From IMG/VR virus record IMGVR_UViG_3300025131_011243, positions 58,592 to 122,591 of that record: DNA of 64,000 nt; one strand, given 5' to 3'. Shown in pieces: positions 41,166 to 64,000 of the stretch; within the stretch, counting starts at the first letter, position 1; each line of letters opens with the position of its first letter. The notes beneath the pieces were generated by a model that was not told the origin of the DNA, made no database searches, and saw only the letters and a program-made list of their open reading frames with translations. This stretch comes from a virus. The translations under genes were made by a program, and so were the position numbers.

Positions 41166-41176
41166 TGTTATTTAAG

Positions 41177-43831: not shown

Positions 43832-43834
43832 GTC

Positions 43835-44901: not shown

Positions 44902-45824
44902 TCTCCAGTGTAATCGTCGGTTCCTCTATCGTCTACGTCAAGATAGTTCCCGCCAACTCGGTAAATCTGGTTGCCCGTAATACCCTCTCGGATAACGCCA
45001 ACCAAACTCTGCAAGTCGAAGTTCCTATCTCCACCAGACAAACAGATGCCCGCCGATTGAACAGCAAGCGTTTTCTTATCAACAGTCGAACGATGAGTTT
45101 CACCATCGACAACATACTCGACAGTATACGACTCGCCTCGCTCAACGAAACTCCTGAATCCGCCACCAGCACGATTGATTGCCGACTTTACTCGACCTTC
45201 TGCCGTAAGAGCTTCCGCCTCGACAGCAAGCCTCTTGGCTTCCTTTTCGGCCTCAACAACATCGACCAAAGCAAGGTCGTAAGCACGTCTCTGTTCCTTT
45301 GACATACTTGAAAAATCAACGTCCTTCGGGGCAACGTTTTCTGACAAGGCATTTCTCAATACAGTTGCATGCTTGATGCTATGAGCGTCGTCGATCCTTT
45401 CGAACCAACAGTTGATGCCATCGAATCTAACACGCACTGCATCGAACAACTGCAATTCTTCCGGCAAAAGAATAGGAACAAATCCTTGAATCTTGAACCG
45501 GGAATCACCTTCGTTTGCAGGGATACCCCAGAAACGGTTGTCCTGTCGCCTGGTTGCGATCAACCTTAGAACAGGGAACAGGTTGAAGTACGTTCGCCTC
45601 TCGATCATCGTAGGCTCACGTACAAACTCTGCGAGCTTGTAGGAAGCGGGACGGAATACGCCCCAACCCTCAAAACCTCTCGGCTTTGAAACCCGCAATG
45701 ACATAACGATGTCAGCAATCTTAACCCTGATCGCCTTATTGCGCAGAACAGGGCTGAAGAATTCCGACTTGAGGAAAACATCTTCTTCCGCTGCCAACTT
45801 TTTCAAAAGCTCATTGACCTTCAT
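44889..45824 (-). CDS. uncharacterised protein of the Ubl/TROVE operon
   Basis: 311-aa ORF; C-terminal SAGICLSGGD..FDLQSLVGVIRE. Confidence 0.8.
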   Translation of the reverse strand: MKVNELLKKLAAEEDVFLKSEFFSPVLRNKAIRVKIADIVMSLRVSKPRGFEGWGVFRPASYKLAEFVREPTMIERRTYFNLFPVLRLIATRRQDNRFWGIPANEGDSRFKIQGFVPILLPEELQLFDAVRVRFDGINCWFERIDDAHSIKHATVLRNALSENVAPKDVDFSSMSKEQRRAYDLALVDVVEAEKEAKRLAVEAEALTAEGRVKSAINRAGGGFRSFVERGESYTVEYVVDGETHRSTVDKKTLAVQSAGICLSGGDRNFDLQSLVGVIREGITGNQIYRVGGNYLDVDDRGTDDYTGDWSD

Positions 45825-45839
45825 GGCCTTACTCCAATT

Positions 45840-45870
45840 AAAACAGGGTAGCAGAAGCTACCCTGTTTTT
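45840..45870. terminator. intrinsic terminator after the TROVE gene
   Basis: AAAACAGGGTAGC-agaa-GCTACCCTGTTTT perfect hairpin with A/T tails. Confidence 0.75.
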
Positions 45871-45896
45871 CAAGTCAAAATGTAGCTCCTTCCGGA

Positions 45897-47441: not shown

Positions 47442-47491
47442 GGTCTTTCTCCTTAGAAAGAGTTTTACAAATTATCGATTCGGATTCGGAA

Positions 47492-47701
47492 TTAACCGAA
47501 TACAGCCTGCGGACGAAGAGTCATGTCACCGGTTTCTGCGTTGCGGTCAACAACGAAACCATTCATCTTGGTGAGAGGAGCACTGAAGTGATTAGCTACA
47601 GCCTGCTTGACGTCTTGGTCGGTAGAGAGATCGCCCACATCGATATCCTCGAAGAGAAGATCGAACGATTCTCCATTGTATCTGACGTGAAGTACTGACA
47701 T
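47492..47701 (-). CDS. ubiquitin-like (beta-grasp) small protein
   Basis: 69 aa, beta-beta-alpha-beta-beta pattern, ends in Gly (QAVFG), co-operonic with E1 and JAB. Confidence 0.75.
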   Translation of the reverse strand: MSVLHVRYNGESFDLLFEDIDVGDLSTDQDVKQAVANHFSAPLTKMNGFVVDRNAETGDMTLRPQAVFG

Positions 47702-47746
47702 TTTTCATCTCCTTTCGTCTGCAAGCCTCAAGAGAGGCATAAAAAA

Positions 47747-47878
47747 AGCCTTGTCTAAGTTTCAGGACGGTTTCTTGGGTAACGTGCAAGATTTGAACTT
47801 GCGACCTTCACTTCCTAATAGTGACGCTCAACCTACTGAGCTAACGTTTGTAACGTCCAAATTGTTGGAGACAAGGCT
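47747..47878 (-). ncRNA. Y-RNA-like RNA with nested tRNA-like domain
   Basis: terminal stem AGCCUUGUCU/AGACAAGGCU plus U-tract; inner D, anticodon (loop AUUAGGA) and T arms; shared motif. Confidence 0.75.
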
Positions 47879-47881
47879 AAG

Positions 47882-48016
47882 TGGGAGAGGTAGGAGTCGA
47901 ACCTACGAGTCTTGCGTTTTCAGGGCAATGCTTTACCAAAAGTTTGTAAGCTACATCCCATTGGAGACGGACAAGCCGTCTAAGTCAGAATAGCTATAGC
48001 ACTAAGCTACTCTCCC
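47882..48016 (-). ncRNA. tRNA-like (GAA anticodon) RNA with ~60-nt motif insert in the D-loop
   Basis: acceptor GGGAGAG/CUCUCCC, T-arm GUAGG-UUCGACU-CCUAC; insert ACUUAGAC..GUCUCCAA..UACAAAC. Confidence 0.75.
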
Positions 48017-48041
48017 ATAATTATTCAGTTTTCAAAAAGCG

Positions 48042-48112
48042 AACGTCCAAGTTCAGGCAGCGGTCAAAGCATTCCGAAGATTGGTTTGTATGCTGTCCTT
48101 GTTGGGGACGTC
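48042..48112 (-). ncRNA. stand-alone minimal Y-like motif RNA
   Basis: ACGUCCCCAA..CAGCAUACAAAC..GCUGCCUGAACUUGGACGU. Confidence 0.65.
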
Positions 48113-48126
48113 AACTTAATTTCAAG

Positions 48127-48268
48127 TGGGGGAGACAGGACTCGAACCTGTAGTCTTTCGCTTATGAGGCAAACGCTTTTCCATTTGTTTGTAAGCTACG
48201 ACCTATTGGAGACGAACAAGCCGTCTAAGTTGGAATAGCTGTTTAACGTAGTTTTTAGCTACTCCCCC
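48127..48268 (-). ncRNA. tRNA-like (CAU anticodon) RNA with motif insert in the D-loop
   Basis: acceptor GGGGGAG/CUCCCCC, T-arm ACAGG-UUCGAGU-CCUGU; insert nearly identical to that in 47882..48016. Confidence 0.75.
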
Positions 48269-48273
48269 ATGGA

Positions 48274-48318
48274 GGTCCCGGTCGCCAAGTTTCCGAAGAA
48301 GCTTGACGAGTCAGGACC
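48274..48318 (-). other. stable hairpin within the RNA array
   Basis: GGUCCUG..UCGUCAAG..CUUGGCGA..GGGACC. Confidence 0.45.
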
Positions 48319-48349
48319 ATATAGTTTTCAAAGAACTCTTTGAAAAGTC

Positions 48350-48516
48350 AAGAAGAAACAGGCGTCCAAGTTCGAGCAGCGGTATGACATTAGTCACAGA
48401 TCTTAAATCTGTTGCCTTATCCACTTGGCTATACGTTCATGTTGGTGAACATAGTGGGATTCGAACCCACGTTGTTGTTTGTACGCTACGCCAGTAGGGG
48501 ACGCCGGTTTCTTCTT
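48350..48516 (-). ncRNA. Y-like RNA containing a circularly permuted tRNA-Leu(UAA)-like domain
   Basis: order T-arm, acceptor 3' strand + ACCA, loop, acceptor 5' strand, D-arm, anticodon arm, all within the motif stem. Confidence 0.75.
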
Positions 48517-48592
48517 CACTTGTCAAAGTCGAGCCTTACGACTCTGCCCTATCTTATCAGCTTCCCAGCCACTTTCAAGGGCAATATTCAAC

Positions 48593-48620
48593 TTATCGGC
48601 TTTTTCTTGAAATTCCTTTA
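48593..48620 (-). promoter_or_regulatory. sigma28-like promoter upstream of the RNA array
   Basis: TAAA-N16-GCCGATAA; a sigma70-like TTGAAA-N16-TAAGAT also lies just downstream. Confidence 0.55.
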
Positions 48621-48636
48621 ATGAATTCCGCAAAGC

Positions 48637-48945
48637 TCAGTTTTTCTTACCTCTCGCAGCTTCAGAGGGCATCTTACCATATCTTTTATGGCTGTCAACC
48701 CCTAAATCATCGTCGTCAAAATCATCTCCGTCATCCCAAACTTCTCCGTTCTCATCTTTGTAACGCTCGTCTTTCATCCAAGTTATCACAACAGGATCTT
48801 CGCCTCGATAAAACTTTTCCTGATGCTGCCCGTCATGATCCTGGGGGAGAGGACATCGGACGGTAGCAACCCCATCGCCAAAGTCGTCTCCGATATAAAG
48901 GTGAGCATTACATTCGCCTTCAACATCTTCTGGTTTTCCAAACAT
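48637..48945 (-). CDS. hypothetical protein
   Basis: 102-aa ORF, AGGAGA RBS. Confidence 0.65.
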   Translation of the reverse strand: MFGKPEDVEGECNAHLYIGDDFGDGVATVRCPLPQDHDGQHQEKFYRGEDPVVITWMKDERYKDENGEVWDDGDDFDDDDLGVDSHKRYGKMPSEAARGKKN

Positions 48946-48964
48946 TCGTTTCTCCTAAGTTAAG

Positions 48965-49046
48965 TGCGGAAGGAGGGACTTGAACCCTCAAGCCTTACGG
49001 CACTGGATTTTAAATCCAGCGTGTTTGCCAATTTCACCACTCCCGC
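48965..49046 (-). tRNA. tRNA-Leu(TAA)
   Basis: CTGGA-TTTAAAA-TCCAG, variable arm, A73. Confidence 0.93.
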
Positions 49047-49047
49047 T

Positions 49048-49518
49048 CTATTCATTCCAATCGCTGTCGATCATATCGTAAGGATCGAAACCCATTCTTT
49101 TCAACTTGTTCCAAAAGCGAATGTTATCTCGTTCTCTTTGTTCCTGTTTCTCCTCTTCCTTTCTAGCCCATTCTTCTCGATGCAATTTAATCTCTTCCAG
49201 CCTTGCCCTGCGACATTGGCTACACATGTTCCATAGGTATCTGCATCGCACATGAGGGTCAAGCTTCCGTCTTGCATGTTCGGTAAACTTGCTGCTATCC
49301 TTTTTGTTTGCCGTTTTCTTTACCTTGTACTGAGTCTTGCGATGCTTCTTCCAAGACCTTACGATGGTCGTTGAAACGTCGTCCCATGCGTCAGGCAACA
49401 TTCGGGGAGTCCTTTTCCCTCGAATCCTGTAACGCATTTCAGCATCTTCCATGTCCTCCAAGGACCCGTAGTAGCCACGACGTTCATTGGTCGTTGCGGG
49501 GGATCTGAAGTAACCCAT
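49048..49518 (-). CDS. hypothetical basic protein
   Basis: 156 aa, LPDAWDD..RSWKKHRKTQY. Confidence 0.7.
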   Translation of the reverse strand: MGYFRSPATTNERRGYYGSLEDMEDAEMRYRIRGKRTPRMLPDAWDDVSTTIVRSWKKHRKTQYKVKKTANKKDSSKFTEHARRKLDPHVRCRYLWNMCSQCRRARLEEIKLHREEWARKEEEKQEQRERDNIRFWNKLKRMGFDPYDMIDSDWNE

Positions 49519-49522
49519 TTTC

Positions 49523-49581
49523 GTATCTCCTATGCAAAGTTAAACACTTCACATAGGAGATACCGGCTTTGTCCTTTTCAT
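49523..49581 (-). promoter_or_regulatory. RBS-sequestering hairpin overlapped by a 10-aa uORF
   Basis: 12-bp perfect inverted repeat 49523-49534/49552-49563; uORF MKRTKPVSPM 49549..49581. Confidence 0.55.
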
Positions 49582-49597
49582 ATCTGTATCCTTTCAA

Positions 49598-49683
49598 TAC
49601 GGGCGAGAGGGGTCGAACCTCCATAGGATTTTACTCCCGCCAGATCCTAAGTCTGGTGCGTCTGCCAGTTCCGCCACGCCCGC
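49598..49683 (-). tRNA. tRNA-Leu(TAG)
   Basis: CCAGA-CTTAGGA-TCTGG. Confidence 0.93.
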
Positions 49684-49692
49684 TCTTTCAAA

Positions 49693-49778
49693 TACGGATA
49701 AGAGGAGTCGAACCTCCATGGGATTTTACTCCCGCTAGATTCTGAGTCTAGTGCGTCTGCCTATTCCGCCACATCCGC
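49693..49778 (-). tRNA. tRNA-Leu(CAG)
   Basis: CTAGA-CTCAGAA-TCTAG. Confidence 0.93.
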
Positions 49779-50270
49779 TCTTAAGTCATTTTTGTTCTTG
49801 TTCCTTCCTCCATATGTAGGAGTTTGACTATGACAATTTGGACATAGTAATCTAAGATTCCTTATGCGATTGTCTGTCCTGTCTCCGTTCTCGTGGTCCA
49901 AATGCATTGAAAGAGGTTCTCCATTCCACTCTGTTCCCATTCCGCATTTAGAACATTTTTCTTCCAGTTTGCCACATTCGATTAACCTTTTCTTAAGGTG
50001 GCAATTGTTGTATACGACTCCCTTTTTTAGGAGATCCCTTAACTCTCTCTTACTAGGTGGGCTCCATGTTTTATCAAGCTTTCTTCTAGATGCCTGCCCT
50101 AAAAAATGACTCGTATCTATCTTGAAGTTTTCAATCTTGCCCTTCAAGTGAGAATGATTCCCCCCTGAAGGAGCAAGCCCTATCTTCTCCAAAACCTGGC
50201 TAATGGAGAAAGAAGTAGCTACTGCCTCCTCCAGATCTTGGATAGAATACCTTTTCGACGTATGCTTCAT
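49761..50270 (-). CDS. HNH homing endonuclease in the tRNA cluster
   Basis: CSKCG..LDHENGDRTDNRIRNLRLLCPNCHSQT; stop codon lies inside tRNA-Leu(CAG). Confidence 0.92.
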   Translation of the reverse strand: MKHTSKRYSIQDLEEAVATSFSISQVLEKIGLAPSGGNHSHLKGKIENFKIDTSHFLGQASRRKLDKTWSPPSKRELRDLLKKGVVYNNCHLKKRLIECGKLEEKCSKCGMGTEWNGEPLSMHLDHENGDRTDNRIRNLRLLCPNCHSQTPTYGGRNKNKNDLRADVAE

Positions 50271-50333
50271 ATTGCACCTCCACTATTAGGTACAATATCT
50301 TATAGTAAACCTCCTTCACAATTTACCAATGAG

Positions 50334-50358
50334 GTTTGCCAGTTTCCGTCACCTGGGC
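50334..50358 (-). pseudogene. 5' fragment of a tRNA-Leu
   Basis: GCCCAGGTGACGGAAACTGGCAAAC, truncated in the D-arm. Confidence 0.55.
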
Positions 50359-50555
50359 TTTATTTTACCATGTTTGCCTCACGGATGCATCCTTTTTCTT
50401 GCCAAATTCTTTTTCTTCTGTCGAATTCAAAGGGATTCTATGATCCCGCAGGATGTCAAAGAGATTTCGTTTACCTTGCCGGTCTTCGGCTCTCTTACGG
50501 TCATAGTCGTCTCCTTCGTCGTTTGCTTGAGTTTTCATAGCAGTTCTCCTTTTAA

Positions 50556-50639
50556 TGCACCGGGTTGGATTCGAACCAACGTAGACTTTCGCCAACAGTT
50601 TGACAGACTGCTGCAACTCTCCAACTTTGCCGCACGCTC
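50556..50639 (-). pseudogene. degenerate long-arm tRNA with GTC anticodon
   Basis: D, anticodon and T arms fold but the acceptor stem has three mismatches. Confidence 0.55.
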
Positions 50640-50646
50640 TCAGTTA

Positions 50647-50684
50647 TTACAGCCTACCGGGCTCACCACCTGCCCAACTCGCCT
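50647..50684 (-). pseudogene. 5' half of tRNA-Tyr(GTA)
   Basis: AGGCGAG-TT-GGGC..GCCC-G-GTAGG-CTGTAA then breaks. Confidence 0.6.
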
Positions 50685-50697
50685 ATTAAGTTTCAAA

Positions 50698-50780
50698 TAC
50701 CCCTGACAGGAGTCGAACCTGTACGCCTTAATCGGCAGTAGGTTTTGAACCTACCGTGTCTGCCGTTCCACCACAGGGGC
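50698..50780 (-). tRNA. tRNA-Leu(CAA)
   Basis: GTAGG-TTCAAAA-CCTAC. Confidence 0.93.
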
Positions 50781-50791
50781 TCTGTTTCAAA

Positions 50792-50875
50792 AGGCCGCTG
50801 AGGGATTCGAACCCTCGATGGCTTAACGCCAGCGGATTTGCAATCCGCTCCCTTTGTCCGCTCGGGCAAACGGCC
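50792..50875 (-). tRNA. tRNA-Cys(GCA) with long variable arm
   Basis: GCGGA-TTGCAAA-TCCGC, U73, extra arm TGGC-GTTAA-GCCA. Confidence 0.85.
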
Positions 50876-52983: not shown

Positions 52984-54804
52984 TTAGGTAATTGTGAGAA
53001 GCCTTATGGCTTTGTTATCTACTGCGTAGATCCCTTCTTTTGCCAGGAACAGGTGGCTGCTCGAATCCACAAAAGGCTCCGTATCAGGGTAGTCCTTTGT
53101 TTCAGCGATCATACTACCATGTAATTCGATGCGTTTCAACCCCTCATCTGTCGATGAGAAGAATAATTTTCCAGCCGCCGTTTTTCCCCTGATATTCTCC
53201 AGCCAAGCGACATGCTCGTTGCTATCGTCAATACTAGCTAAAACCTCGCCTTTTTCGCTGATTACGACGCAATGAGAGACGACGTTTGCCCCCTCTTTTG
53301 ACTTATATAGGAACCAGCAAATTTCATCTGCAAAATAGCAAGTTGAGTCCAAAAGCTGACCCCGAAACGGCGGCAGCTTGACTCTATCGTTGATTCCCTT
53401 GCTTGAAGTCCTGAAAGTGAAAGCTACCGACATTTCGCCAGCCCGATAGAATCCGAAACCGAACTTTTTCCCTGCCCAGAACAAAGTTTGACCAGACAAT
53501 ACGTCACCAATTCGTTCAATTCCCTCAACTCCGGAAACAGTTACTCGCTTCGTTAAGAATCCGTTGTTCAACCAGAACAAGTCTTTGCCGTTTGAATCAA
53601 AGACAGGAAGAACACCTCTATAACTATCAACCGTCAATTGATCAACAACTTGTCCGTCTTCCAAACAAAGAGCTTTTCCGCTCTTCCCAAAGAGAGATTG
53701 CTTACCATGAATGCGATACCGAACTTGAGGGTCAAGCTTGCTCCGATGAACAACCTTGTTCTCTTCTCTTCTATAAGCTCCATCTTCATGATACAAATAC
53801 TTCAACTTACCGCTTTGAAGGGCAGCAAACAAAATTACTCCGCTCGTTTCAAACATACGATCCGCCTTTACCGAACCTTTAATGGTAACGGTCTGAACGA
53901 TTCTACCAGAAGGAGGCTTCTGATATGAGTACGGAGACTGAAGAAGGATGGCAGGGAAAGCACCACGTTTGTCCTTGACAAAAACGTCATGAAAATGACT
54001 TCTCAACGAATCGGAGAGTTCATTCATCTTTCTGGCAGGCTTGGGATACTTAACGTCCGGATGAAAAACGCTAATACGATGCAAAGGTCTGTTGCCATGA
54101 GCAACCTTATGGGAACCTTTTTTGGGAATATATACTCCATCATACGGTCGAGTATACAGCAGACATTCAAACAACATAATGTTAAATGCATACCAGTCCG
54201 AATCCTCATTGTGAGGCTTGGTCAATTCAACTCGATCCGAATGACATACCAAAGGATCAACAAAGTTAGCAGTAAACATGGGACATAAATACTTACCATA
54301 TTGCCAACTGTCTGCATCGATAAAGTAAGCATCGGTCCCAACAATAAGACAATTCATGTCGTTGTTGTCGCCAATCACAGCGACCTTATGTATACCGCTC
54401 AAGGTTTCATGTATATTTTGGAAGATCGATGCGACCTGTTCGTCGTCCGCACCAGAACTTCTGAAGCTTTTTTCCGAATACCTGAATAAAAGGTCTGCCC
54501 CTGGAATCAGCTTCATTACATATCCGACAATCTGATTCTTGCTGTTTCTAACAAGACTCTCCGGAGAAACAACCTTGGCAGGAACCTGTTTGGGAAAGGC
54601 TGCAAGTTTTGTCTGATGAGCCTTAAGGCGAGCCGTTGCTGCTGACTGTTCGTGAGGTAAACCGGCATAGTCTTGGTGCTTAGGCCCTTTGAAAATTTTA
54701 ACAGCCTTGCCGCCATATTCGTAGACATCAGCCTCTCCGCCTTTTCCAATGGATTTAGACGGATCGAGTCTGACTTTTTTGTTATCAATATAAACGTCAG
54801 CCAT
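52984..54804 (-). CDS. Ser/Thr protein kinase-like protein
   Basis: IGKGGEADVY, AVKIF, IGDNNDMN, IDADS, DWYAF. Confidence 0.85.
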   Translation of the reverse strand: MADVYIDNKKVRLDPSKSIGKGGEADVYEYGGKAVKIFKGPKHQDYAGLPHEQSAATARLKAHQTKLAAFPKQVPAKVVSPESLVRNSKNQIVGYVMKLIPGADLLFRYSEKSFRSSGADDEQVASIFQNIHETLSGIHKVAVIGDNNDMNCLIVGTDAYFIDADSWQYGKYLCPMFTANFVDPLVCHSDRVELTKPHNEDSDWYAFNIMLFECLLYTRPYDGVYIPKKGSHKVAHGNRPLHRISVFHPDVKYPKPARKMNELSDSLRSHFHDVFVKDKRGAFPAILLQSPYSYQKPPSGRIVQTVTIKGSVKADRMFETSGVILFAALQSGKLKYLYHEDGAYRREENKVVHRSKLDPQVRYRIHGKQSLFGKSGKALCLEDGQVVDQLTVDSYRGVLPVFDSNGKDLFWLNNGFLTKRVTVSGVEGIERIGDVLSGQTLFWAGKKFGFGFYRAGEMSVAFTFRTSSKGINDRVKLPPFRGQLLDSTCYFADEICWFLYKSKEGANVVSHCVVISEKGEVLASIDDSNEHVAWLENIRGKTAAGKLFFSSTDEGLKRIELHGSMIAETKDYPDTEPFVDSSSHLFLAKEGIYAVDNKAIRLLTIT

Positions 54805-55582
54805 CGGTCTCCTCTTCCGGTTTGCGACGAATCACAACCAACCCTACGTCATCATGCATAAAACCAGGTTCGCCGTTGTAGTCTCTTGCGATCAGATGGA
54901 AACGACGACGAAGCATATCTTGGTTGTTGAAATATTTGTCTTCTGTCCAAATTTGAGACAAACTTCCGAACTGTTTTTGTTGACCGGGGACATTTTTGTC
55001 AGGCTCAAAGTAACTCAAGCCGTCTGTACTAATGACCAAAGACTGTAAGGCATCCGTGGGAATACAGGCTCTTTGAACGAACTGGTATTTCCCGTCCTCT
55101 TCGGGAAAGATGTGAGAATAAACCATATAAGGAGGCGCATTGCCGGGAAAAGGCCCGATTTCGGACATTTCTCCATTGACGCCAAAAAAACCATCTCCTA
55201 TGGAAAATACATAAGAGTTTCCTGGCATAACAACTGCGACAATAGTTGTACACAGAAAATTCCCATCCAACAGATGAGTCTCATCTCCTCTCATGTTTTT
55301 GACGATTGCTTTTACTGCTTTCAGCGCATTAATACGGACATCGTCCATTGCACAATCAACATTAAAATTGTAAGACAAATATAATCCGACATCTTGGGCG
55401 ACTATCCTAGAAATGATTTGAGCCCCAATTTCTGAATGATCGCTACTCCCGCATCCGTCGCAGACGACAGCGACAATCGTTGAACCGTCGTTGGTTACGC
55501 ATACGGCGTCTTGATTATTGCGGCCAGCATTGAGGTGATCTTTACCACAAACGGACGCCGAAGCGACTTGGAATTCATCCAT
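54797..55582 (-). CDS. PP2C-family phosphatase
   Basis: G..H....NNQDA, VCDGCGS, IGDG, STDGL, DDV. Confidence 0.88.
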   Translation of the reverse strand: MDEFQVASASVCGKDHLNAGRNNQDAVCVTNDGSTIVAVVCDGCGSSDHSEIGAQIISRIVAQDVGLYLSYNFNVDCAMDDVRINALKAVKAIVKNMRGDETHLLDGNFLCTTIVAVVMPGNSYVFSIGDGFFGVNGEMSEIGPFPGNAPPYMVYSHIFPEEDGKYQFVQRACIPTDALQSLVISTDGLSYFEPDKNVPGQQKQFGSLSQIWTEDKYFNNQDMLRRRFHLIARDYNGEPGFMHDDVGLVVIRRKPEEETDG

Positions 55583-55639
55583 CGTTATCCTATCTATAAA
55601 GCCCTCGCATTGTACAATATTTGGATTGAAATTCAAGGG

Positions 55640-55666
55640 AAAAGAAAAGGCGGCATTTCTGCCGCC
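55640..55666 (-). terminator. intrinsic terminator after the RNase P RNA
   Basis: GGCGGCA-gaaa-TGCCGCC-TTTTCTTTT. Confidence 0.85.
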
Positions 55667-55672
55667 GATAAA

Positions 55673-55874
55673 GACGTTTGGCTCCGTAAGCAGGATTCTG
55701 TTCTATGTCGTCATTTCTCTATTGGCCCTCTACCCGCCATCATAGTCATGCTCACCAACTCCGGCTGCTTGAGGTTGCTATCTCTGTGGTCCAAGCGGCG
55801 TTAGCCTCCCACATTAGAGCACTATAGTCCTGACTTTCCTCTGCGAATTGCAGCGACGACTCGAACCAAACGTC
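55673..55874 (-). ncRNA. rnpB: minimal RNase P RNA (~202 nt)
   Basis: CR-I GAGGAAAGUCAGGA and CR-V ACAGAAUCCUGCUUA form P4 with compensatory changes; P1, P2, P3, P5, P15 and L15 GGU fold. Confidence 0.88.
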
Positions 55875-56196
55875 AAATACCCTTTAGAGCTTGCACAATT
55901 TTACCAACTTCTTTGCCCCATTCTGTCCGCTTATTGCCTATGGCCAATATAGTCTTGGAAAACTCGGAAGCTGGAGCGTCTTCTATCTTACCCAATTCTA
56001 TTCTTCGAAGCAAGATCCTCATATCCTTGGACAATTCTTCGCCTCTCCTTTTCATTCCATCGAAATCATGGGACACAAAAATTACCAAAGAAGCATCGTC
56101 CGAAGAATCGTACAAGGATTCAATCTCGTTCAAAATCCTATGTATTTCTAATTGGCTTTCTCTGATAGTTGATTCCACCACATTGATGGGTATCAT
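55873..56196 (-). CDS. hypothetical protein
   Basis: 107-aa ORF; stop codon overlaps the rnpB 5' end. Confidence 0.65.
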   Translation of the reverse strand: MIPINVVESTIRESQLEIHRILNEIESLYDSSDDASLVIFVSHDFDGMKRRGEELSKDMRILLRRIELGKIEDAPASEFSKTILAIGNKRTEWGKEVGKIVQALKGI

Positions 56197-56621
56197 TTTT
56201 TCAACCCTTTCTCAGCCAAATATTCATCAACTCTGTTTTTTACCCTTTGTGCTGGAGTGGAAGTTTCAACTACATACAGAGCTTCTGTCTTTAGTTCCTC
56301 GCCCCATTGCTGAACCAAATCTGTGGCCCTGTCCCTGTAATCGTTGTCGGTGATGCTCTTGCCTACTGGAGACGAAAAGAATTCAATTGCTTTATTGATA
56401 TCTGTTTCGCTCAAATGGTTCGCCGCTAAAACTACCAAGCGATTGAACAAAACATCTTCCCCATATTTGTCTTGAAGTTTCTTCCTATCTTCTTCACTAA
56501 CCTCGGGAGCCGATCTCCAAAGATCGGCAAAAATACGATCTACCAATTCTCTGGTGATAACATTGCTTCCCATCAACTTCAACAACTGCATGGTTCGGCT
56601 AAGATATTGCGCTTCAGTCAT
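56193..56621 (-). CDS. DUF2059-like protein
   Basis: HLSETDINKAIEFFSSPVGKSI. Confidence 0.65.
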   Translation of the reverse strand: MTEAQYLSRTMQLLKLMGSNVITRELVDRIFADLWRSAPEVSEEDRKKLQDKYGEDVLFNRLVVLAANHLSETDINKAIEFFSSPVGKSITDNDYRDRATDLVQQWGEELKTEALYVVETSTPAQRVKNRVDEYLAEKGLKK

Positions 56622-57010
56622 GGCTGAACAATGCCTCCCGTTTTCTGAGTCTCTTCCATAAGGTTGTCAAGAACCTTGAGGTCATGCTCTGTTGCGGTCG
56701 TAATCCCTCCGCCCTGCTGTTTTGTCTGTTCTTGAACTTCCGCTTCCGCCTGTTGCCAAGCTGCGTTGAACTTATCAAATGCTTCGTTGATATTCAGGGC
56801 ATCAGCGATGACAAACTTGATACTAACAACACCTTGTCCGGTATCGACAGGTCCTATGCCTATAAAAATAGGCTCGTCCCCAGCTACAGGAACGTCCTCT
56901 CCGTCCGGAATATCTACTTCGAATTCGCCCTCCTTGGTCCACATTTCAATCCTGTGAAAACTGTCGGATTGAAATATGCTCCTACGACGAAAAGGAAGAT
57001 TGAACTTCAT
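56618..57010 (-). CDS. hypothetical protein
   Basis: 130-aa ORF, AAGGTG RBS. Confidence 0.65.
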   Translation of the reverse strand: MKFNLPFRRRSIFQSDSFHRIEMWTKEGEFEVDIPDGEDVPVAGDEPIFIGIGPVDTGQGVVSIKFVIADALNINEAFDKFNAAWQQAEAEVQEQTKQQGGGITTATEHDLKVLDNLMEETQKTGGIVQP

Positions 57011-57069
57011 AAAACACCTTTCATTTGAGTTATTGACTTTGGATATTGTACTCTAATGGCAATCACAAA

Positions 57070-57263
57070 GGTGGGGCTGGACGGTACATCGCAGAAAAGA
57101 AGTAAAAAACGAGAATGAGTCTTGCGTCTTAATCGTTAACTATTGAGCCATTGAATCTTGAATTCTGACCTTCTAGATCACGATCAGGTACGTTGGTCAT
57201 TCAAATGACCTAACATTTGTTTTCGCAGTTCACCTCTAGTCAACTTCTCCGCCCAACCCCATC
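57070..57263 (-). ncRNA. candidate structured ncRNA with ~7-nt periodic repeats
   Basis: 15-position closing stem (one mismatch) 57249-57263/57070-57084, internal hairpin, eight imperfect YCAA-type heptads at 57114-57170. Confidence 0.6.
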
Positions 57264-57279
57264 AACAGATCAGTCGAGA

Positions 57280-57738
57280 TCAGTCGAGATCAGGAATATC
57301 GATTGTCGTATTGTGATTGAAAGTGTCGAGTTCCGACTGGATGGTATCAATCTGTGTTTCCAGTCTGGCAGCATTCTGGTCCGCTTCTTGCCTACGGACT
57401 TCGGCCTCATAGACCGGAGCATCGCCAGAACCGTAATAGCTAGACGCCGAAGTTCCATGATTCGTGTTGATCCCATTCCAGAAATCTACTTCAGTCTTTG
57501 ATTCTGAAAGTCTGAAGATTTTGCCTACAATGGGGGCGTTAGCCTGAGCCACAGCAACCTTAAGATCGATCAGATGATTTACGAGAGCCTCTCGCCTTTG
57601 GACAAGGGCTCGGATATCCTCTTCTCGCTCTTCTCCCTGAACGGCAGAGTTTGAACTTTGAACCTTGTCGTTGACCTTCGCAATCCATCCGGCAACTCTT
57701 TTCTTGTAAGACAGTGCTTTTGCTAGTGTTAGTTTCAC
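57280..57738 (-). CDS. DIP1984/DUF6847-like coiled-coil protein
   Basis: LTLAKAL..K, LKVAVAQAN, IDTIQSELDTFNHNT. Confidence 0.6.
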   Translation of the reverse strand: MKLTLAKALSYKKRVAGWIAKVNDKVQSSNSAVQGEEREEDIRALVQRREALVNHLIDLKVAVAQANAPIVGKIFRLSESKTEVDFWNGINTNHGTSASSYYGSGDAPVYEAEVRRQEADQNAARLETQIDTIQSELDTFNHNTTIDIPDLD

Positions 57739-57749
57739 CTTGCAATCTC

Positions 57750-58355
57750 CTAGTATTCTTCGCTTAACAGGACTCTCTTAACTTCAACGCCCGAATAGCC
57801 CATTATATCCAACTGGGCTTTCACTTTTTTGTTTCTTACCCAAACCCGTCCAGCTTTCATAAGATCGAGTTCAGGAACGACGCATTGAACGGTTCCAGGA
57901 TTCTGGCGAGCCTTTCTCAACCATCGGCTTTTTGACCATGAAGGCTTTAATACCAATCTGCGCTCATAGTCAGATACATTATAGTCGTTATGCCCAGAGT
58001 TCAAAACAATATGCCAATAATCATAGTCGCTAAACATAAGGGTCGGAATCTGATCTTCCTCAAACGAGAACATGATGTAATTAGGAAACTCTCCCTTTTT
58101 ACAATATATGCTCTTGCCGTCCTTGCAGCCTATCCATCTTCTCCATTGATTCTGGTAACCAGTCATACCATGAGCATGCACGTTGTTGCCTACCGTCATG
58201 TATAGCGGAACAAAACCAGCGGCATCGCCCATCCATCGGTAAGCAGGTTCAAAATACTCATCAAATTCATCTTTATACGGACCATAAGAGGGGCGCAGAA
58301 TGCGAGCCTCAACTCCACGCATATCCGTACAATGATGGAAAATGAACTTCTTCAT
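57750..58355 (-). CDS. DUF3841-like protein
   Basis: AYRWM, FSDYDYWHIVLN, VQCVVPEL. Confidence 0.55.
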   Translation of the reverse strand: MKKFIFHHCTDMRGVEARILRPSYGPYKDEFDEYFEPAYRWMGDAAGFVPLYMTVGNNVHAHGMTGYQNQWRRWIGCKDGKSIYCKKGEFPNYIMFSFEEDQIPTLMFSDYDYWHIVLNSGHNDYNVSDYERRLVLKPSWSKSRWLRKARQNPGTVQCVVPELDLMKAGRVWVRNKKVKAQLDIMGYSGVEVKRVLLSEEY

Positions 58356-58371
58356 CCGTGAACTTTAGCAA

Positions 58372-58869
58372 CTACTTCGCTCGTTGAATCATCTGCTGCT
58401 GTTCTAAATACAACTCTGATCTTTCCCTTGTCCAAGGCTCAGTTTTAACGGGCTTATCTCTGGCGTCTACCCTTGGTCTTGCCTCTGGTCTTGCCTCTGG
58501 TCTTGCTGTTTCTTCTTTTGGCGGCTCTGGCTTTTCAGGAAGAGGGGCAGGCTCTTCTGCAACAGGCTCTTCCGTCTCTTCAGGATTGTCCCATGGAACA
58601 GAAGAAATGTCAAAAGGTTTCGTTGCGACTTGGGGATACAGTCTGGGTAACACAAAATCCTTGAAGTCCCCCTGATTCTCCTTCATAGCTCCAACTGTAA
58701 TACTTAAATTACGAACAAGCTCGTCTAGGGCTCCAACCGTACCTGCCAAAGCGTTGTTCTCAGCTTTAAGGTCAGAAATTTGAGCTTGTTGAGAAAAACT
58801 CCACGCTCCCCAAGCGATGATGATTGCCCCAAGAGCGGTATTCACGATATAAGGCTTGAGACCAGACAT
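58372..58869 (-). CDS. membrane-anchored coiled-coil/Pro-rich protein
   Basis: N-terminal TM helix, ARPE repeats. Confidence 0.65.
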   Translation of the reverse strand: MSGLKPYIVNTALGAIIIAWGAWSFSQQAQISDLKAENNALAGTVGALDELVRNLSITVGAMKENQGDFKDFVLPRLYPQVATKPFDISSVPWDNPEETEEPVAEEPAPLPEKPEPPKEETARPEARPEARPRVDARDKPVKTEPWTRERSELYLEQQQMIQRAK

Positions 58870-58903
58870 AAGTTGTTATTCTAACATTTGACCTGCATAC
58901 CCT

Positions 58904-59158
58904 TTATGCCACCGATCTGCTGAAGATGCGATCTACCTTCTTCCTCTTCTTCATAATATTTCCTGTTCGCTTTTTGTACTCTAATTCGCAATACGAATCT
59001 AGCATCTTTTCTACTTCTGGTTCCAAGTTGATGTTGCCACAAGAGCGGCATGTGAATACTTCTGAATTGATCCGAATTTCTATGTCGCCAACTTGTTTTG
59101 CTATTGCATGTATTCCTCTAGACTGACTTGTCTCTCGGTCGCAATGAATACAGTGCAT
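58904..59158 (-). CDS. YgiT-type zinc-finger protein
   Basis: CIHC...CRSCG. Confidence 0.65.
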   Translation of the reverse strand: MHCIHCDRETSQSRGIHAIAKQVGDIEIRINSEVFTCRSCGNINLEPEVEKMLDSYCELEYKKRTGNIMKKRKKVDRIFSRSVA

Positions 59159-59175
59159 TCATATCCCCTTACCCA

Positions 59176-59826
59176 TTACCAATGAAGTTCTGGAATTTCT
59201 AATAGACGATCATGGACTTCACCTCTAGTGTCAGCCAAACAAACGAACCTCGTACCATCGATTTCCTCGTCCATCTTGACATGGAAATGACCAAAGATCC
59301 AAATGTCAGGCTTGTGAATCTCGAACATGCTTTGTAGAGCATTTTCTGTCCTACTAGAAAACTCCCCCTTCCCTATGGGGGTAGCCAGTCTTAGAACTGT
59401 GGCCTTAGCTACAGTAGGGCATTCGTGAGAAACGACGATCTGAGGTTTTGTATCGGCGTACTGAACCATTACGTCTTCAAATAACTTCTGATAAGAAAGC
59501 TCTTCATCCTCCCACCAATCTATACCAATTGTTCTATTGTCAACATCGATAGAATAACCGCCACCAACCCAGAAGGCGTCCATACCTGGATGATAACCGA
59601 AGTCACCCAAATGGCTTGGATGAATCTGACATAATTCTGGGTTGTCGTGGTTACCTCTGATGAAACGATGGTCTTCAGAGTTTTCAACTAAAAGTAGATC
59701 TCGTTCTCGGAATATACCCATATCTCCGACTTGCCACGATTGGTCCAAACCAACAACACCCGAAGTAATGACCATGTTGTTGATCATCCATCTTCGGGTA
59801 GGGAATTCTCCATGAACGTCTCCCAT
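59176..59826 (-). CDS. calcineurin-like metallophosphoesterase
   Basis: GDVHG, VGDMG, RGNHD, SHECP, FGHFH; true start may lie a few codons upstream. Confidence 0.9.
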   Translation of the reverse strand: MGDVHGEFPTRRWMINNMVITSGVVGLDQSWQVGDMGIFRERDLLLVENSEDHRFIRGNHDNPELCQIHPSHLGDFGYHPGMDAFWVGGGYSIDVDNRTIGIDWWEDEELSYQKLFEDVMVQYADTKPQIVVSHECPTVAKATVLRLATPIGKGEFSSRTENALQSMFEIHKPDIWIFGHFHVKMDEEIDGTRFVCLADTRGEVHDRLLEIPELHW

Positions 59827-59848
59827 AAACCAGATAGTAATGCTCCAA

Positions 59849-60163
59849 TCATTGCTTGCTATTTACAAGCACTTCAATTTCAAACTCCAATGCAGTCGTA
59901 ACCTTTACCAATGAGGCTAACGATCTACCGTCATATGTTTTGCTTTCCATCCTAGCAATAACAGCTTGAGATACCCCGGACAGTTTAGCTAGTTGCTGTT
60001 GTGTTAGTTCTGACTTAACTCTTGCCCTATGTATCTTGGATGACAAATCGGAAACGATCTGTGCTATTTCCTTTTTCGCTATTTCAGCCGGTGACGACCC
60101 CCACTTACTTATGAAGTCATCTCGACGCTGACGTACTATTTCGTTCTTGCCTTTGACGGCCAT
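59849..60163 (-). CDS. XRE-family HTH regulator
   Basis: LTQQQLAKLSGVSQAVIARME. Confidence 0.9.
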   Translation of the reverse strand: MAVKGKNEIVRQRRDDFISKWGSSPAEIAKKEIAQIVSDLSSKIHRARVKSELTQQQLAKLSGVSQAVIARMESKTYDGRSLASLVKVTTALEFEIEVLVNSKQ

Positions 60164-60191
60164 AAACGCAATCCTTATTCAGGTTGAATCG

Positions 60192-60219
60192 ATTATACCA
60201 TATGACGCAATAAAGTCAA
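60192..60219 (-). promoter_or_regulatory. sigma70-type promoter
   Basis: TTGACT-N16-TATAAT with extended TG. Confidence 0.65.
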
Positions 60220-60226
60220 TATGGGC

Positions 60227-60763
60227 TTAATCGCTTCGTTTACTGTACAGACCGACGCCAGATCGATGACTAAATGAATCCAAACAATCGTAGTTGTCTT
60301 CCAAGTATCCTCTTGCCTTTTTGTAACCGCCTATCCGGCCTCGGCGATCATGATCATGAAGCATAACCAATGCCTCTGGGTTCATGAATTGTTCGGCAAA
60401 CAAAATCGCTTCGTAACGGAAGACTCCACTTCGATCTTTTGGCCCAAAGCCAGTACTCCCATCGACCAATACAAAATCATACTTATACAATCGGGTAAAA
60501 TCAGCCCATCGATCAGTATGAATTTCGACTTGGGGAAGAAAATGGTTAACCTGATCAATACAGGATTGAAAATTCTCTATGGATACATAGGACTCAGGCT
60601 CAACAGAACTCCATACGGCCCAGGTCGTAACTCCGCACCCGAATTCTAAAACAGAATGCACCCGTTCCTTATATGGCTGAAGAATATTATACATCCAGTC
60701 CAACTCTTCGCCTGTAGGGGCTAAAGCAGACGGTTTAAAATCTTTGGGCAATGAAAAACTCAT
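60227..60763 (-). CDS. class I SAM-dependent methyltransferase
   Basis: VLEFGCG, YDFVLVDG, LHD. Confidence 0.8.
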   Translation of the reverse strand: MSFSLPKDFKPSALAPTGEELDWMYNILQPYKERVHSVLEFGCGVTTWAVWSSVEPESYVSIENFQSCIDQVNHFLPQVEIHTDRWADFTRLYKYDFVLVDGSTGFGPKDRSGVFRYEAILFAEQFMNPEALVMLHDHDRRGRIGGYKKARGYLEDNYDCLDSFSHRSGVGLYSKRSD

Positions 60764-61665
60764 AACTCCCTCACCATATTCAGAAGCATTTTAGACATAC
60801 CTACAGGAGAGAAATACTTTTCGTAAACATCCATCGACGCCTCATGATAAGGGACAGGATCTATATCCCTTAGTTTCTCTAGATCCTCTGGCTTCGATAA
60901 AAGTACGTAGTGTTTTCCTGCCTCAAAGGGAAAGTCATAAGTAGGCTGATAATTCAAAGCCATTGGCATCCCGCATGAAGAGTATTCACATTCTCTTCTG
61001 TTTTTGCCGTCATGATTTCTTTGACGACCTTTGAGAGAAAGACCCCATTTGGTTCTTTTAAGCTTATGTATATACTCCTCCATCGGGAACCTAGCCAAAT
61101 AGTTTTCGAACGAAAAGAATCCTTTGTGCTTTACACAATAGTCTACCCACGGCTGTCTGCCAAATCTGTTGTTCTTTCCCGTAAGTATCGTGACATACTT
61201 ATGACGACCGTTCTTCCACTGAAATGGTTCTAGGGGAAAAAGGGCATTTGGCATAACCGTCCAAGACTTAACGGGTATCCCCAATGTGTCTGAAATAGTA
61301 CTCCACGTTTTATTCTTATACCATTGGATCTTGATTAGAAGGTCTACCCCAGATAAAGGCCCGTCTTCTTTCATCTTTTTCTTGTCCAAAGGACGTATTT
61401 GACCTTTCTTGTGAAAGTATCCCAACGCATAGAACCTGGTAGTCGGATGGAACGTGTCCCAAGTGTCGATGCCTATTGTTTTACCTTCGACCTCTATCAG
61501 GTTCCAATTCTGCTGACGGGCTCCAGGTTTTTGAGAATAGACCTCTGGCAAGTCTTTGTCCTGAACATCAAACAAACCACTATCACCCAGCAATCGGATA
61601 ATTGTCCGATTCCAACCAGCTAGAGATTTGTGTTCTTTCTGAACGTAAAGGGGGATCTTGCTCAT
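60760..61665 (-). CDS. putative glycosyltransferase (GT-B-like C-terminus)
   Basis: EYIHKL..TKWGLSLKG..NRRECE..GMP..FEAGKHYV. Confidence 0.55.
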   Translation of the reverse strand: MSKIPLYVQKEHKSLAGWNRTIIRLLGDSGLFDVQDKDLPEVYSQKPGARQQNWNLIEVEGKTIGIDTWDTFHPTTRFYALGYFHKKGQIRPLDKKKMKEDGPLSGVDLLIKIQWYKNKTWSTISDTLGIPVKSWTVMPNALFPLEPFQWKNGRHKYVTILTGKNNRFGRQPWVDYCVKHKGFFSFENYLARFPMEEYIHKLKRTKWGLSLKGRQRNHDGKNRRECEYSSCGMPMALNYQPTYDFPFEAGKHYVLLSKPEDLEKLRDIDPVPYHEASMDVYEKYFSPVGMSKMLLNMVREL

Positions 61666-63134
61666 AACATAGAGAACTGTTCAAAATTACTCAGTACCAT
61701 TGTCTCGGTAGGATAAACATCGCACCTGAATACATACTTGAATTCATCGACGACTTGTTCATAATGGTATCGGAAAGAGTGTTTTTCCTCCGAATCGTGA
61801 CATACTATAAACTTGGCAACATCTTTGATCTTACGAATTAAAGGAACTCTTGCTGCTGGAGGCTCTGCATCTACTAAAGCAACATCCCAGAACAAACCTT
61901 CTTTCCATTGGTCAAAATCGAACTCTTCCCATTTGTTAAAATAGATTAGCTTATGATGGTCATTGGCAAAACCTTCGAACAGCTTGAAATACTCCTTGCC
62001 TTTTTCGGGACTTTTGGGATTGCTCTCTATAGTCAGGAGTTGCCTGTTCAATGGAACGCAAAGGCTATGAAGCATGGGAGTGCTATAGTGTCCGCATCCC
62101 AACTCAAGGACGTTGCCCTTAGTCTGGGCGAAAGCAGACAAAAGCACGGGCAAATGAGTACCAGTTGACTTCATGGCATTGATTTTGGGCTTCTTTAGTG
62201 ACTGGGGGCCACTGTCTGTCTTGACTTCTTGTCTGGCTTTTTGTCTCTCTTCTCTATTGGCTTTGGCGACAGAACGACCAATGTAGTTTACCAATACTGT
62301 GGGATCTCCGCCAATAACAGGTTCTGATTCTTCTGGTTTTGGCTGGACTTTAGGAGTAAAGCTGTCTGGATCAACAATCATTTCATATTCGGGTAGTTCT
62401 TTAAGAGCAGCTACAATATTCGCCGTTCTATTCCCTTGCACCCACCCGAATTTCTTGAACTTAGGTCGTCTATATAACGATCCCAGTCTTTTGGCACAAT
62501 AAAACAGATAAGTATCTTGCGACGGAACGGGCAGCTTATACTGATCATCGATTTTGGCAGGACTAGTTACGTTTTTTGTCCATTCCGTATTGCCGAAATA
62601 TATGAACGAGATAATACGACTATGCTTGACCTTGTTGGACTTAGGGTCGTAAGGAATATTCAAAGGTTTTGAATCAGAGAACATGGGAACAGAATCCGCC
62701 CATGCATCCATCTTTTCAATAGCATTGTTCGGCTTGGTATATCCCCAAGGACTGCTAATAAAGGCTGGATTATCTTCAAACCATTCATCAAAGATCCATT
62801 GGTCACTATTGGTTGCGAAGACATCTGTATCTATCTTCAAATACCAAGGCGTCTTAACTCTTTCCCCCGGAATAACCGTCAACGCAGTGAGCATATTTTC
62901 ACGCTGAGTGTCGTACAACCCTTCTGGGGGATCCCAGAAATGAATCTGAAAATCGTCTCGATTGCGAAGCATCTTAAAGACAGGATGAGTAATCTTAATT
63001 TGCTTGGCATCGCAGATGGCAAGAACAGGACATGTCGCCAGTTCTGGTTTGAAATGAGCCCAACTAGGATAGGTTACCACCAACTGGTCCGCATGAGCTT
63101 CGTCCAAACCTAATACCATTGTAAAATCGATCAT
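61662..63134 (-). CDS. GT-A glycosyltransferase fused to methyltransferase-like domain
   Basis: YLKIDTD DxD motif; C-terminal VLELGCGHYST..VALVD..CHD. Confidence 0.7.
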   Translation of the reverse strand: MIDFTMVLGLDEAHADQLVVTYPSWAHFKPELATCPVLAICDAKQIKITHPVFKMLRNRDDFQIHFWDPPEGLYDTQRENMLTALTVIPGERVKTPWYLKIDTDVFATNSDQWIFDEWFEDNPAFISSPWGYTKPNNAIEKMDAWADSVPMFSDSKPLNIPYDPKSNKVKHSRIISFIYFGNTEWTKNVTSPAKIDDQYKLPVPSQDTYLFYCAKRLGSLYRRPKFKKFGWVQGNRTANIVAALKELPEYEMIVDPDSFTPKVQPKPEESEPVIGGDPTVLVNYIGRSVAKANREERQKARQEVKTDSGPQSLKKPKINAMKSTGTHLPVLLSAFAQTKGNVLELGCGHYSTPMLHSLCVPLNRQLLTIESNPKSPEKGKEYFKLFEGFANDHHKLIYFNKWEEFDFDQWKEGLFWDVALVDAEPPAARVPLIRKIKDVAKFIVCHDSEEKHSFRYHYEQVVDEFKYVFRCDVYPTETMVLSNFEQFSML

Positions 63135-64000
63135 TCGTACTTGCCCTCAAATTCTTTGTTCGAGTCAGCTACGATCTTCTTCCATTCTCTTGGTTTCAGT
63201 CGCCCAACTTGTTTGTCATTGGCCATCCATGTGTCCAAATGTTTCAGAAGACCAGAATCTATTAACTCTCCTGTACACTTCCACCACAGTCTTCCCGAAG
63301 GACGCTTGGTTGTTGCGTGTTTTCGGCCATGAAGATGCAGGATTTTAGCCTTCTTAATGTCGTCAAAAACAGCAGAACAATTCCAGACCGAATCCAACAC
63401 CTTTGTCTTATGGCGGAAGAACATGCATTGACAAGCGATCTCGTCAACGATAAAACGGCACTTACCTTTGTACGTTGTCTCGATCCAGTCTTTCATGAAT
63501 TCGTCAGACTCGCCTTTGGTTATGCCAAGGACCCCGGTATTGATTGCTGGACCAGCTACCAGGGCCTCCTCAATCTGTTTTTTAGGCAACACGTCGCCTA
63601 AACTGTTAATCCTCTTCTTCAACCTTTGCCCACTGGAAATCCAATTTGAGAACTGGGTAAGCAATGTAGGGGAGTCTTTGATCTGAGCAATAAGTGGATC
63701 TACATTGGTTAAGAAAACAACGTCGGTATCAACTGCCAAGGTTATGTCGTATGGTGTCTTGTTGATGATCTCAGGCTTGATGGTATACCCTGTATTCCTC
63801 TTGCACGGAGACTTCAAAGGGAAGTATGTAACGTCTACGCCCAAACGTCCAAGATCTTCTGTCATTTCACCAACATACTCATCTTCGGCCAAGCATACCG
63901 TAGCGTTGCCGCTGTAATGTTTTCGCAAAGTATAAGCCGCAACCATCATTCGCAAAGCGCATTTGTTACCGAAGTTAAAAAAGAAAACTCCCTTAGACAT
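63131..64000 (-). CDS. GT8-like glycosyltransferase (ATG at window edge)
   Basis: PYDITLAVDTD, INTGV, DE, WN, ILHLHG. Confidence 0.75.
   Translation of the reverse strand: MSKGVFFFNFGNKCALRMMVAAYTLRKHYSGNATVCLAEDEYVGEMTEDLGRLGVDVTYFPLKSPCKRNTGYTIKPEIINKTPYDITLAVDTDVVFLTNVDPLIAQIKDSPTLLTQFSNWISSGQRLKKRINSLGDVLPKKQIEEALVAGPAINTGVLGITKGESDEFMKDWIETTYKGKCRFIVDEIACQCMFFRHKTKVLDSVWNCSAVFDDIKKAKILHLHGRKHATTKRPSGRLWWKCTGELIDSGLLKHLDTWMANDKQVGRLKPREWKKIVADSNKEFEGKYE

Follow-up and report, generated by a model that had tools for sequence, protein, structure and literature searches.

The 64,000-nucleotide stretch analysed here (the window; positions 58,592 to 122,591 of the IMG/VR virus record IMGVR_UViG_3300025131_011243) probably carries, at 55874 to 55673 on the minus strand, a functional phage-encoded gene for a miniaturised ribonuclease P (RNase P) RNA descended from the bacterial type A form. 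The RNase P ribozyme, one of the two found universally, trims new transfer RNAs (tRNAs), and to our knowledge its two-domain design in bacteria, with one domain for catalysis and one for specificity, has been treated as fixed. In this 202-nucleotide (nt) RNA every element of the catalytic domain is kept, and of the specificity domain (P7-P14 with the T-loop-binding module) almost nothing is left, the module itself being absent. An original prediction had proposed a phage-encoded miniature RNase P RNA without most of its specificity domain, and that proposal is borne out by a covariance-model match, by covariation across 37 relatives, by the phage context, and by the absence of motifs resembling conserved regions II and III (CR-II/CR-III) from the entire set. 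Judged from the sequence evidence, the RNA is most likely a working phage RNase P RNA that would use the protein subunit, RnpA, of its host.

The original prediction had proposed a covariance-model search for the RNase P family as its check, and the result is clear: RF00010, the Rfam model of bacterial class A RNase P RNA, matches at 55671-55872 on the minus strand with 72.1 bits and an E-value of 6.9e-22 in a scan of positions 55400-56100 (701 bases). The match spans model positions 1-367, end to end, with large internal deletions; it has an E-value of 2.9e-23 when the whole record is scanned, and is the single RF00010 match in all 122,591 bases. Within the RNase P clan, bacterial class A is the best match kept by cmscan. 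A covariance model of our own (R1), built from 17 pattern-found sequences with the window sequence as part of its seed, gives one match in the window, at 55676-55870 with 150.2 bits. The ends of the RNA, which are the ends of helix P1, were fixed by complementarity. The energy of the single-sequence fold is not significant alone (z -1.72), and P1, P2, P3 and the terminator hairpin all appear in the minimum-free-energy structure.

Helices P1-P6 and P15-P17, the L15 GGU and conserved regions I, IV and V are all present in the 202-nt RNA, arranged as follows.

55673-55874, minus strand: mature miniature RNase P RNA, 202 nt, 5' end G at 55874 and 3' end C at 55673.
55863-55874 with 55673-55684, minus strand (RNA 1-12 with 191-202): P1, GACGUUUGGUUC with GGAGCCAAACGUC, 12 pairs including one U.G.
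55854-55860 with 55707-55713, minus strand (RNA 15-21 with 162-168): P2, GUCGUCG with UGACGAC, 7 pairs.
55841-55853, minus strand (RNA 22-34): P3, a short 4-pair hairpin, CUGC-AAUUC-GCAG, read from the sequence and aligned to P3 of RF00010.
55828-55841, minus strand: conserved region I, GAGGAAAGUCAGGA, which includes the P4 5' strand and has invariant columns in the family alignment.
55836-55828 with 55688-55695, minus strand (RNA 39-47 with 180-187): P4, AAGuCAGGA with UCCUGCUU, bulged U42 kept.
55824-55827 with 55778-55781, minus strand (RNA 48-51 with 94-97): P5, CUAU with AUAG, 4 pairs, followed by CAA.
55817-55822 with 55748-55753, minus strand (RNA 53-58 with 122-127): P6 pseudoknot, GUGCUC with GAGCAU in the P17 loop, 6 pairs.
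55727-55774, minus strand: P15-P17 arm and L15 strand, aligned to P15-P17 of RF00010.
RNA 101-104 with 145-148, minus strand: P15, CCUC/GAGG.
RNA 110-113 with 136-139, minus strand: P16, GCCG/UGGC.
RNA 116-118 with 128-130, minus strand: P17, GUU/GAC.
55735-55731, minus strand (RNA 140-144): L15 strand, GGGUA.
55714-55723, minus strand (RNA 152-161): J18/2, conserved region IV, AAUAGAGAAA, followed by the UG that opens the P2 3' strand and aligned to the model's CuAGAugAAUG.
55687-55701, minus strand: conserved region V, ACAGAAUCCUGCUUA, which includes the P4 3' strand at 55695-55688, from the RF00010 alignment.
55640-55672, minus strand: 3' trailer and terminator, outside the mature RNA.
55639-55666, minus strand: terminator-like hairpin and U tract of the intrinsic type, GGCGGCAGAAAUGCCGCC, 6 nt past the 3' end of the RNA.

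This anatomy agrees with the helices that the original prediction had drawn, namely P1, P2, P3, P4 with its bulged U, P5 followed by CAA, and P15 with GGGUA in L15, and with its claim of a dedicated terminator (a stem at 55666-55649, then a run of T). What it had called a possible P6, GUGC/GCAU, turns out to be real, longer (the six pairs listed above) and covarying, and P16 and P17 extend its list of helices. The L15 GGU of RNase P RNA is the partner of the tRNA 3' CCA end. In the miniature RNA the corresponding G, G and U, unchanged in all 37 relatives, would be able to pair with a tRNA 3' CCA; in conserved region V, likewise, 13 of 15 positions are invariant across all 37.

The relatives came from IMG/VR, where short versions were sought with spaced patterns drawn from conserved regions I and V. 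The first pattern returned 30 matches, nine of them real and 21 read as chance matches in coding DNA, and a second spaced-pattern search returned the same nine; a further pattern gave seven still shorter RNAs, a looser 3' pattern gave 113 stretches, and an exact 20-base search with the conserved region I of the window found no match in the viral collection. R1 yielded 64 matches on 100 loci, spanning sizes between miniatures and full-size RNAs of 330-376 nt, the latter mostly of host type and from provirus records, 35 matches on 37 sources, with exactly one in the window, and 40 matches on 39 metagenome and genome loci. Thirty-seven sequences sharing the architecture of the window RNA were chosen by eye and aligned with MAFFT after removal of six exact duplicates. 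Left out were RNAs of 147-160 nt, other sub-types (L013, L014, L018, L027, L100 and L176), RNAs of at least 258 nt, fragments, and low-scoring or N-masked genome matches.

On this alignment RNAalifold independently recovers P1, P2, P5, the helix of a small stub described below, P15, P16 and P17, predicting 36 pairs of which 28 show compensatory changes. With P4 and P6 added as pseudoknots to the RNAalifold columns, 47 pairs were counted, and 94.9% of their cells are paired, as against 73.1% in 500 shuffles, none of which reaches the observed value; pairing falls to 34-45% when the strands are slid by one to three columns, and the covariation score is 0.582 versus 0.170 for shuffled and at most 0.126 for slid strands. 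Changes on both sides occur in 36 of the 47 pairs, both pseudoknots included. Helix by helix, all seven P1 pairs counted are compensatory (95.4% paired), as are six of seven in P2 (97.7%), three of four in P5 (99.3%), five of six in P6 (91.4%) and eight of nine in P15, P16 and P17 together (88.3%, 91.0% and 95.5% paired, respectively); in P3 the closing pair was the only one countable, and it is C-G in 35 of 37. In three relatives (L023, L010 and L019) the P6 strands are of wholly different sequence. P4 is 98.6% paired, and the pair at alignment columns 76 and 296 is A-U in 25 sequences, G-C in eight and C-G in three, so the A-U pairs that the original prediction had read as compensatory changes in P4 belong to a covarying series across the relatives.

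Evidence at closer range comes from a metagenome contig of a sister phage (L159), which aligns to positions 55631-64000 of the window at 90.2% identity over 8.4 kb. Over the 202-nt gene there are two differences (99.0% identity), at 55681 in P1 (G-C to G.U) and at 55746 in P17 (U-A to U.G), and pairing is kept in both. None of 159 overlapping flanking windows of 202 nt is as conserved (mean 90.2%, maximum 97.0%). Elsewhere, a protein 94% identical to the neighbouring PP2C-type phosphatase (P0001) was found on a 129.7-kb ENA contig, and protein searches with the PP2C gene and the large terminase found no sister phages in the viral contig collection. Contigs from four runs partly covering the region gave short identical pieces only, with no informative variants; two of these pieces matched conserved region V alone and belong to other RNase P RNAs. 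Taken together, because homology, covarying core helices with two pseudoknots, invariant catalytic-core and CCA-binding nucleotides, and conservation above that of the neighbouring genes all coincide, selection is acting on the core elements as parts of a folded RNA.

What has been lost is equally well defined. The original prediction had estimated about 45 nt between the P5 strands, with P9-P14 and P18 absent; 42 nt are counted there, and only 6 nt separate P15 from J18/2. P18 is likewise absent from 32 of the 37 relatives (3-6 nt between P15 and J18/2) and present in five. In place of the specificity domain there is a small stub, as follows.

55782-55823, minus strand: specificity-domain remnant, 42 nt between the P5 strands, a helix-plus-hairpin stub.
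55812-55809 with 55789-55786, minus strand: stub helix, GUGG/CCAC, 4 pairs, an RNAalifold prediction.
55806-55797, minus strand: stub inner hairpin, GGC-UAAC-GCC, enclosed by the stub helix.

The 5' strand of P6 lies in the same 42 nt, and a further helix considered within the stub, CUCU/AGAG, was dropped, its bases being used by the covarying P6. Across the family the stub is 40-61 nt long, and its helix is 93.2% paired over the 37 relatives with compensatory changes in three of four pairs; the inner hairpin was not aligned and stands outside the pair count. Unpaired purines in the stub are conserved, and the A that precedes the 3' strand of the stub helix is present in 37 of 37; two AG pairs are also among the invariant stub residues. 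CR-II/CR-III-like motifs, which we take to mark the T-loop-binding module, occur in none of the 37 family members, the window RNA included, and were seen in 11 other, mostly larger model matches.

Reduction of RNase P RNA has apparently gone in more than one direction among these searches. The RNAs of 147-160 nt form an ultra-mini class of phage RNase P-like RNAs (L032-L038; for example L032:9729-9875), in which conserved region I through region V takes up only about 113 nt, and pieces of this type also turned up as loose ends in two hydrothermal-vent runs. The opposite shrinkage is seen in a viral RNA (L014:681-882) and in one from a Shapirobacteria assembly of the candidate phyla radiation (L170:2050-2254), both of about 200 nt, which keep CR-II/CR-III-like motifs and appear to have lost most of P15-P17.

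The genomic setting is that of an uncultured marine giant phage. The window encodes a portal protein, a large terminase and a ribonucleotide reductase, and the phage genome that carries the nearest structural relative of the RNA (L002) is complete and has terminal repeats. Past the RNA, on its far side, small open reading frames of no assigned function are interspersed with genes for a spanin-like DUF2570 protein and for a metallophosphoesterase of phage type, all on the same strand. The features that bear on its expression and possible substrates are these.

55873-56196, minus strand: upstream open reading frame of 107 amino acids, no Pfam or PHROG family, its stop codon (55875-55873) overlapping the first base of the RNA.
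54797-55636, minus strand: downstream PP2C-type protein phosphatase (PF13672, E 1.1e-19).
40164-50875, minus strand: phage tRNA gene region, on the same strand as the RNA, its genes the presumed substrates.
L179 (G000:C1:17353-17787), minus strand: PolyA_pol/CCA-adding domain, 80.6 bits.

A promoter scan placed a promoter-like site at 55636-55609, after the terminator and at the PP2C gene. The tRNA region holds 11 tRNA genes called by ARAGORN (five Ser, five Leu and one Cys) and two tRNA-like genes seen by Rfam only (47882-47959 and 48134-48199, 33-35 bits), or 13 in all, in none of which is the 3' CCA encoded. The PolyA_pol/CCA-adding family protein, a 562-amino-acid open frame, lies in the same phage record to the left of the window, and an enzyme of this type fits with tRNA genes that lack an encoded CCA. 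The tRNA genes are almost all of long-variable-arm types, and one 84-nt tRNA combines a Cys GCA anticodon with a long extra arm. A 514-amino-acid open reading frame at 45897-47441 on the minus strand has no Pfam match at E <= 0.001 and no PHROG match at E <= 1e-5. Among the relatives, at least one tRNA gene is present in 23 of 28 loci and at least three in 18, with a maximum of 34; in one of them (L023:2543-2928) a phage transfer-messenger RNA (tmRNA) gene lies inside the tRNA cluster, about 400 nt from the miniature RNase P RNA.

Miniature versions also occur in five cellular genomes, three of which have a full-size RF00010 match above the cut-off as well. An Achromobacter anxifer isolate has a miniature of another sub-type (L176:6079-6290) in an array of 32 tRNAs, with a full-size rnpB elsewhere, and is a possible experimental handle. 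In two Gemmataceae assemblies (L175 and L168; G001 and G002) a miniature RNase P RNA of about 82 bits was the only one detected, with no full-size RNA; these miniatures have zero to one tRNA genes nearby, and their contigs, 367 kb and 198 kb long, may be of giant-phage origin and have entered the assemblies by binning; alternatively, the assemblies may be incomplete.

In light of these features a plausible course of events can be proposed. The RNA would be transcribed through from the upstream gene, would end at its own terminator and would probably be trimmed to about 202 nt, whereupon it would fold into the P1-P6/P15-P17 core. This core would bind the acceptor stem of the precursor tRNA (pre-tRNA), with the L15 GGU binding the 3' CCA after its addition, and would remove the 5' leader through the usual metal-ion mechanism; host RnpA would most probably assist, being the assumed partner since no phage rnpA was found. 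Without the module that stacks on the T/D-loop elbow of the tRNA, substrate binding would be weaker and the shape of the substrate less closely checked than by the host enzyme; for a phage whose pre-tRNAs swamp the cell, such a reduction may be tolerable or even preferable. The 42-nt stub, in which unpaired purines are invariant, probably serves either to brace the core or to make a smaller contact with the substrate. Tentatively, and with less confidence than the identity of the RNA itself commands, the arrangement may be extended to a private tRNA-maturation kit, in which CCA-less tRNA genes, a CCA-adding enzyme and an elbow-blind RNase P RNA acting with host RnpA or with no protein would mature the phage's own tRNAs and tRNA-like RNAs, some of them aberrant, independently of the supply or shut-down of host RNase P RNA. 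If this is true, the miniature would be the first RNase P encoded by a virus and, among those of bacterial type, the first natural one to lack a specificity domain.

Several observations weigh against a working phage RNase P RNA of this kind. The RF00010 score falls below the gathering score of that model, 100; the record is 26% complete as estimated by CheckV; and the rows of the alignment were hand-picked and include many close kin, with the consequence that cell counts overstate independent events. The promoter scan found no promoter-like site directly upstream of the RNA, between it and the 107-amino-acid open reading frame, and there are no RNA runs among the 24 listed runs with the region, all of which are DNA and mostly from marine metagenomes. 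The window copy lies outside the tRNA array, with the nearest tRNA gene 4.8 kb away, and five of the 28 loci of relatives have no tRNA gene. Finally, a search of the rest of the record for rnpA, which the original prediction had suggested, was run with PF00825 and found none, nor was rnpA found in the records of five relatives, three of them complete with terminal repeats.

Among other explanations, the one that survives best, although we consider it unlikely, is an RNase P-like ribozyme whose substrates have shifted, so that non-canonical phage RNAs (tRNA-like or Y-like RNAs, permuted tRNA-like elements, polycistronic junctions) are cleaved over ordinary pre-tRNAs. The missing T-loop-reading module would suit such a change, as would the two low-scoring tRNA-like genes, and the portions of the review PMC11143913 covered here describe an Escherichia coli RNA with its specificity domain deleted that reportedly cleaved pre-4.5S RNA but not one pre-tRNA. 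However, most relatives lie in arrays of ordinary tRNA genes, the L15 GGU that would pair with the tRNA CCA end is invariant, and no specific alternative substrate has been identified. One detail also speaks against a fit to atypical tRNAs: the T arms of the 13 tRNA genes of the window are ordinary and give no sign of needing an elbow-blind enzyme.

A decoy role is quite improbable. Here the RNA would sequester the RnpA of the host, or some other factor that binds RNase P, thereby slowing host tRNA maturation or evading defence, and catalysis would not be needed. The failure to find rnpA in the phage records accords with this, as does retention of the conserved core around P2-P4, J18/2 and J2/4, presumably the binding neighbourhood of the RNase P protein. 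Yet the invariant L15 GGU, the P6 pseudoknot and the P15-P17 arm would be superfluous in a decoy and are nonetheless conserved and covarying, and starvation for RnpA would also hurt the maturation of phage tRNAs. Least probable by far is a host rnpB that the phage picked up and that is now in decay and without function, or a relic of host flank, as the 'provirus' label in IMG/VR, the large internal deletions relative to RF00010 and the full-size rnpB genes in some records of the viral collection might suggest, for no other 202-nt stretch in the 8.4 kb aligned with the sister contig is as well conserved, the same deletion architecture recurs with compensatory changes in 37 sequences, phage genes flank the RNA on both sides and a relative resides in a complete terminal-repeat genome; pseudogene and chance-match readings were rejected on the covariation, the close-range conservation and the E-value of 6.9e-22.

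A working phage RNase P RNA thus remains the preferred reading, and the miniature RNA apparently belongs to a conserved, unpublished phage family. Full-text searching, which covered neither supplements, where Rfam tables of huge phages could list such RNAs, nor subscription journals, turned up no paper in which a phage or other virus encodes an RNase P RNA. RNase P goes unmentioned in the portions covered of the main texts of a 2026 review of jumbo phages (PMC13282480) and a 2020 survey of huge phages (PMC7162821). Routine annotation misses the gene because its score lies under the Rfam gathering cut-off (a scan of the 64-kb window at gathering thresholds reports tRNAs only), and the result is an annotation gap in which such genes are overlooked by genome pipelines. 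The implications are broader than one record, since viruses able to bring their own tRNA 5'-end maturase would extend the list of phage translation genes, which includes tRNAs, tmRNA and ribosomal proteins.

Several known systems can be compared with the miniature RNA. With RF00010 and the M1 RNA (rnpB) of E. coli it shares the P1-P6 and P15-P17 core, regions I, IV and V, the bulged U of P4 and the GGU of L15; unlike them it has 202 nt, compared with 367 positions in the model, a very short P3, no P18, no P9-P14 and no CR-II/CR-III-like motifs, in P4 it has A-U at two pairs for which the consensus of the model is C-G and G-C, and it is encoded by a phage, whereas cellular class A RNAs are not. 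In the literature covered, and within the portions of the sources available, archaeal type T is the only natural form found with almost no specificity domain: nearly all of that domain is missing and the RNA is still active (PMC7191817; PMC13462272), it works with four archaeal proteins including L7Ae, and its stub has been modelled with one T-loop motif (both PMC13462272, in the sections covered). The two are alike as natural RNase P RNAs that keep the catalytic domain and nearly lack the other, and by analogy type T shows an earlier natural instance of the same reduction. In contrast to type T, the miniature RNA best fits the bacterial class A model and sits in a tailed phage, so the likeness is one of analogy and not of membership. 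Theta ribozymes, which resemble that of hepatitis delta virus (HDV) and lie beside phage tRNA genes, are described in the covered part of PMC10879173 as phage-borne ribozymes tied to tRNA maturation; these are small, self-cleaving in cis and of another fold, whereas the miniature RNA is a homologue of the trans-acting RNase P. A further comparison is with the engineered bacterial RNAs reduced to the catalytic domain: according to the same limited portions of PMC11143913, type A and type B catalytic domains without the specificity domain cleave pre-tRNA with or without protein, with weaker binding. The miniature RNA looks like the natural counterpart of these constructs, although unlike them it is a natural conserved gene with a small covarying stub and invariant unpaired bases. 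A conserved, covarying phage version of about 200 nt would give structural studies and engineering a compact ribozyme to work with, and would provide a natural minimal ribozyme with which to ask what the specificity domain is for.
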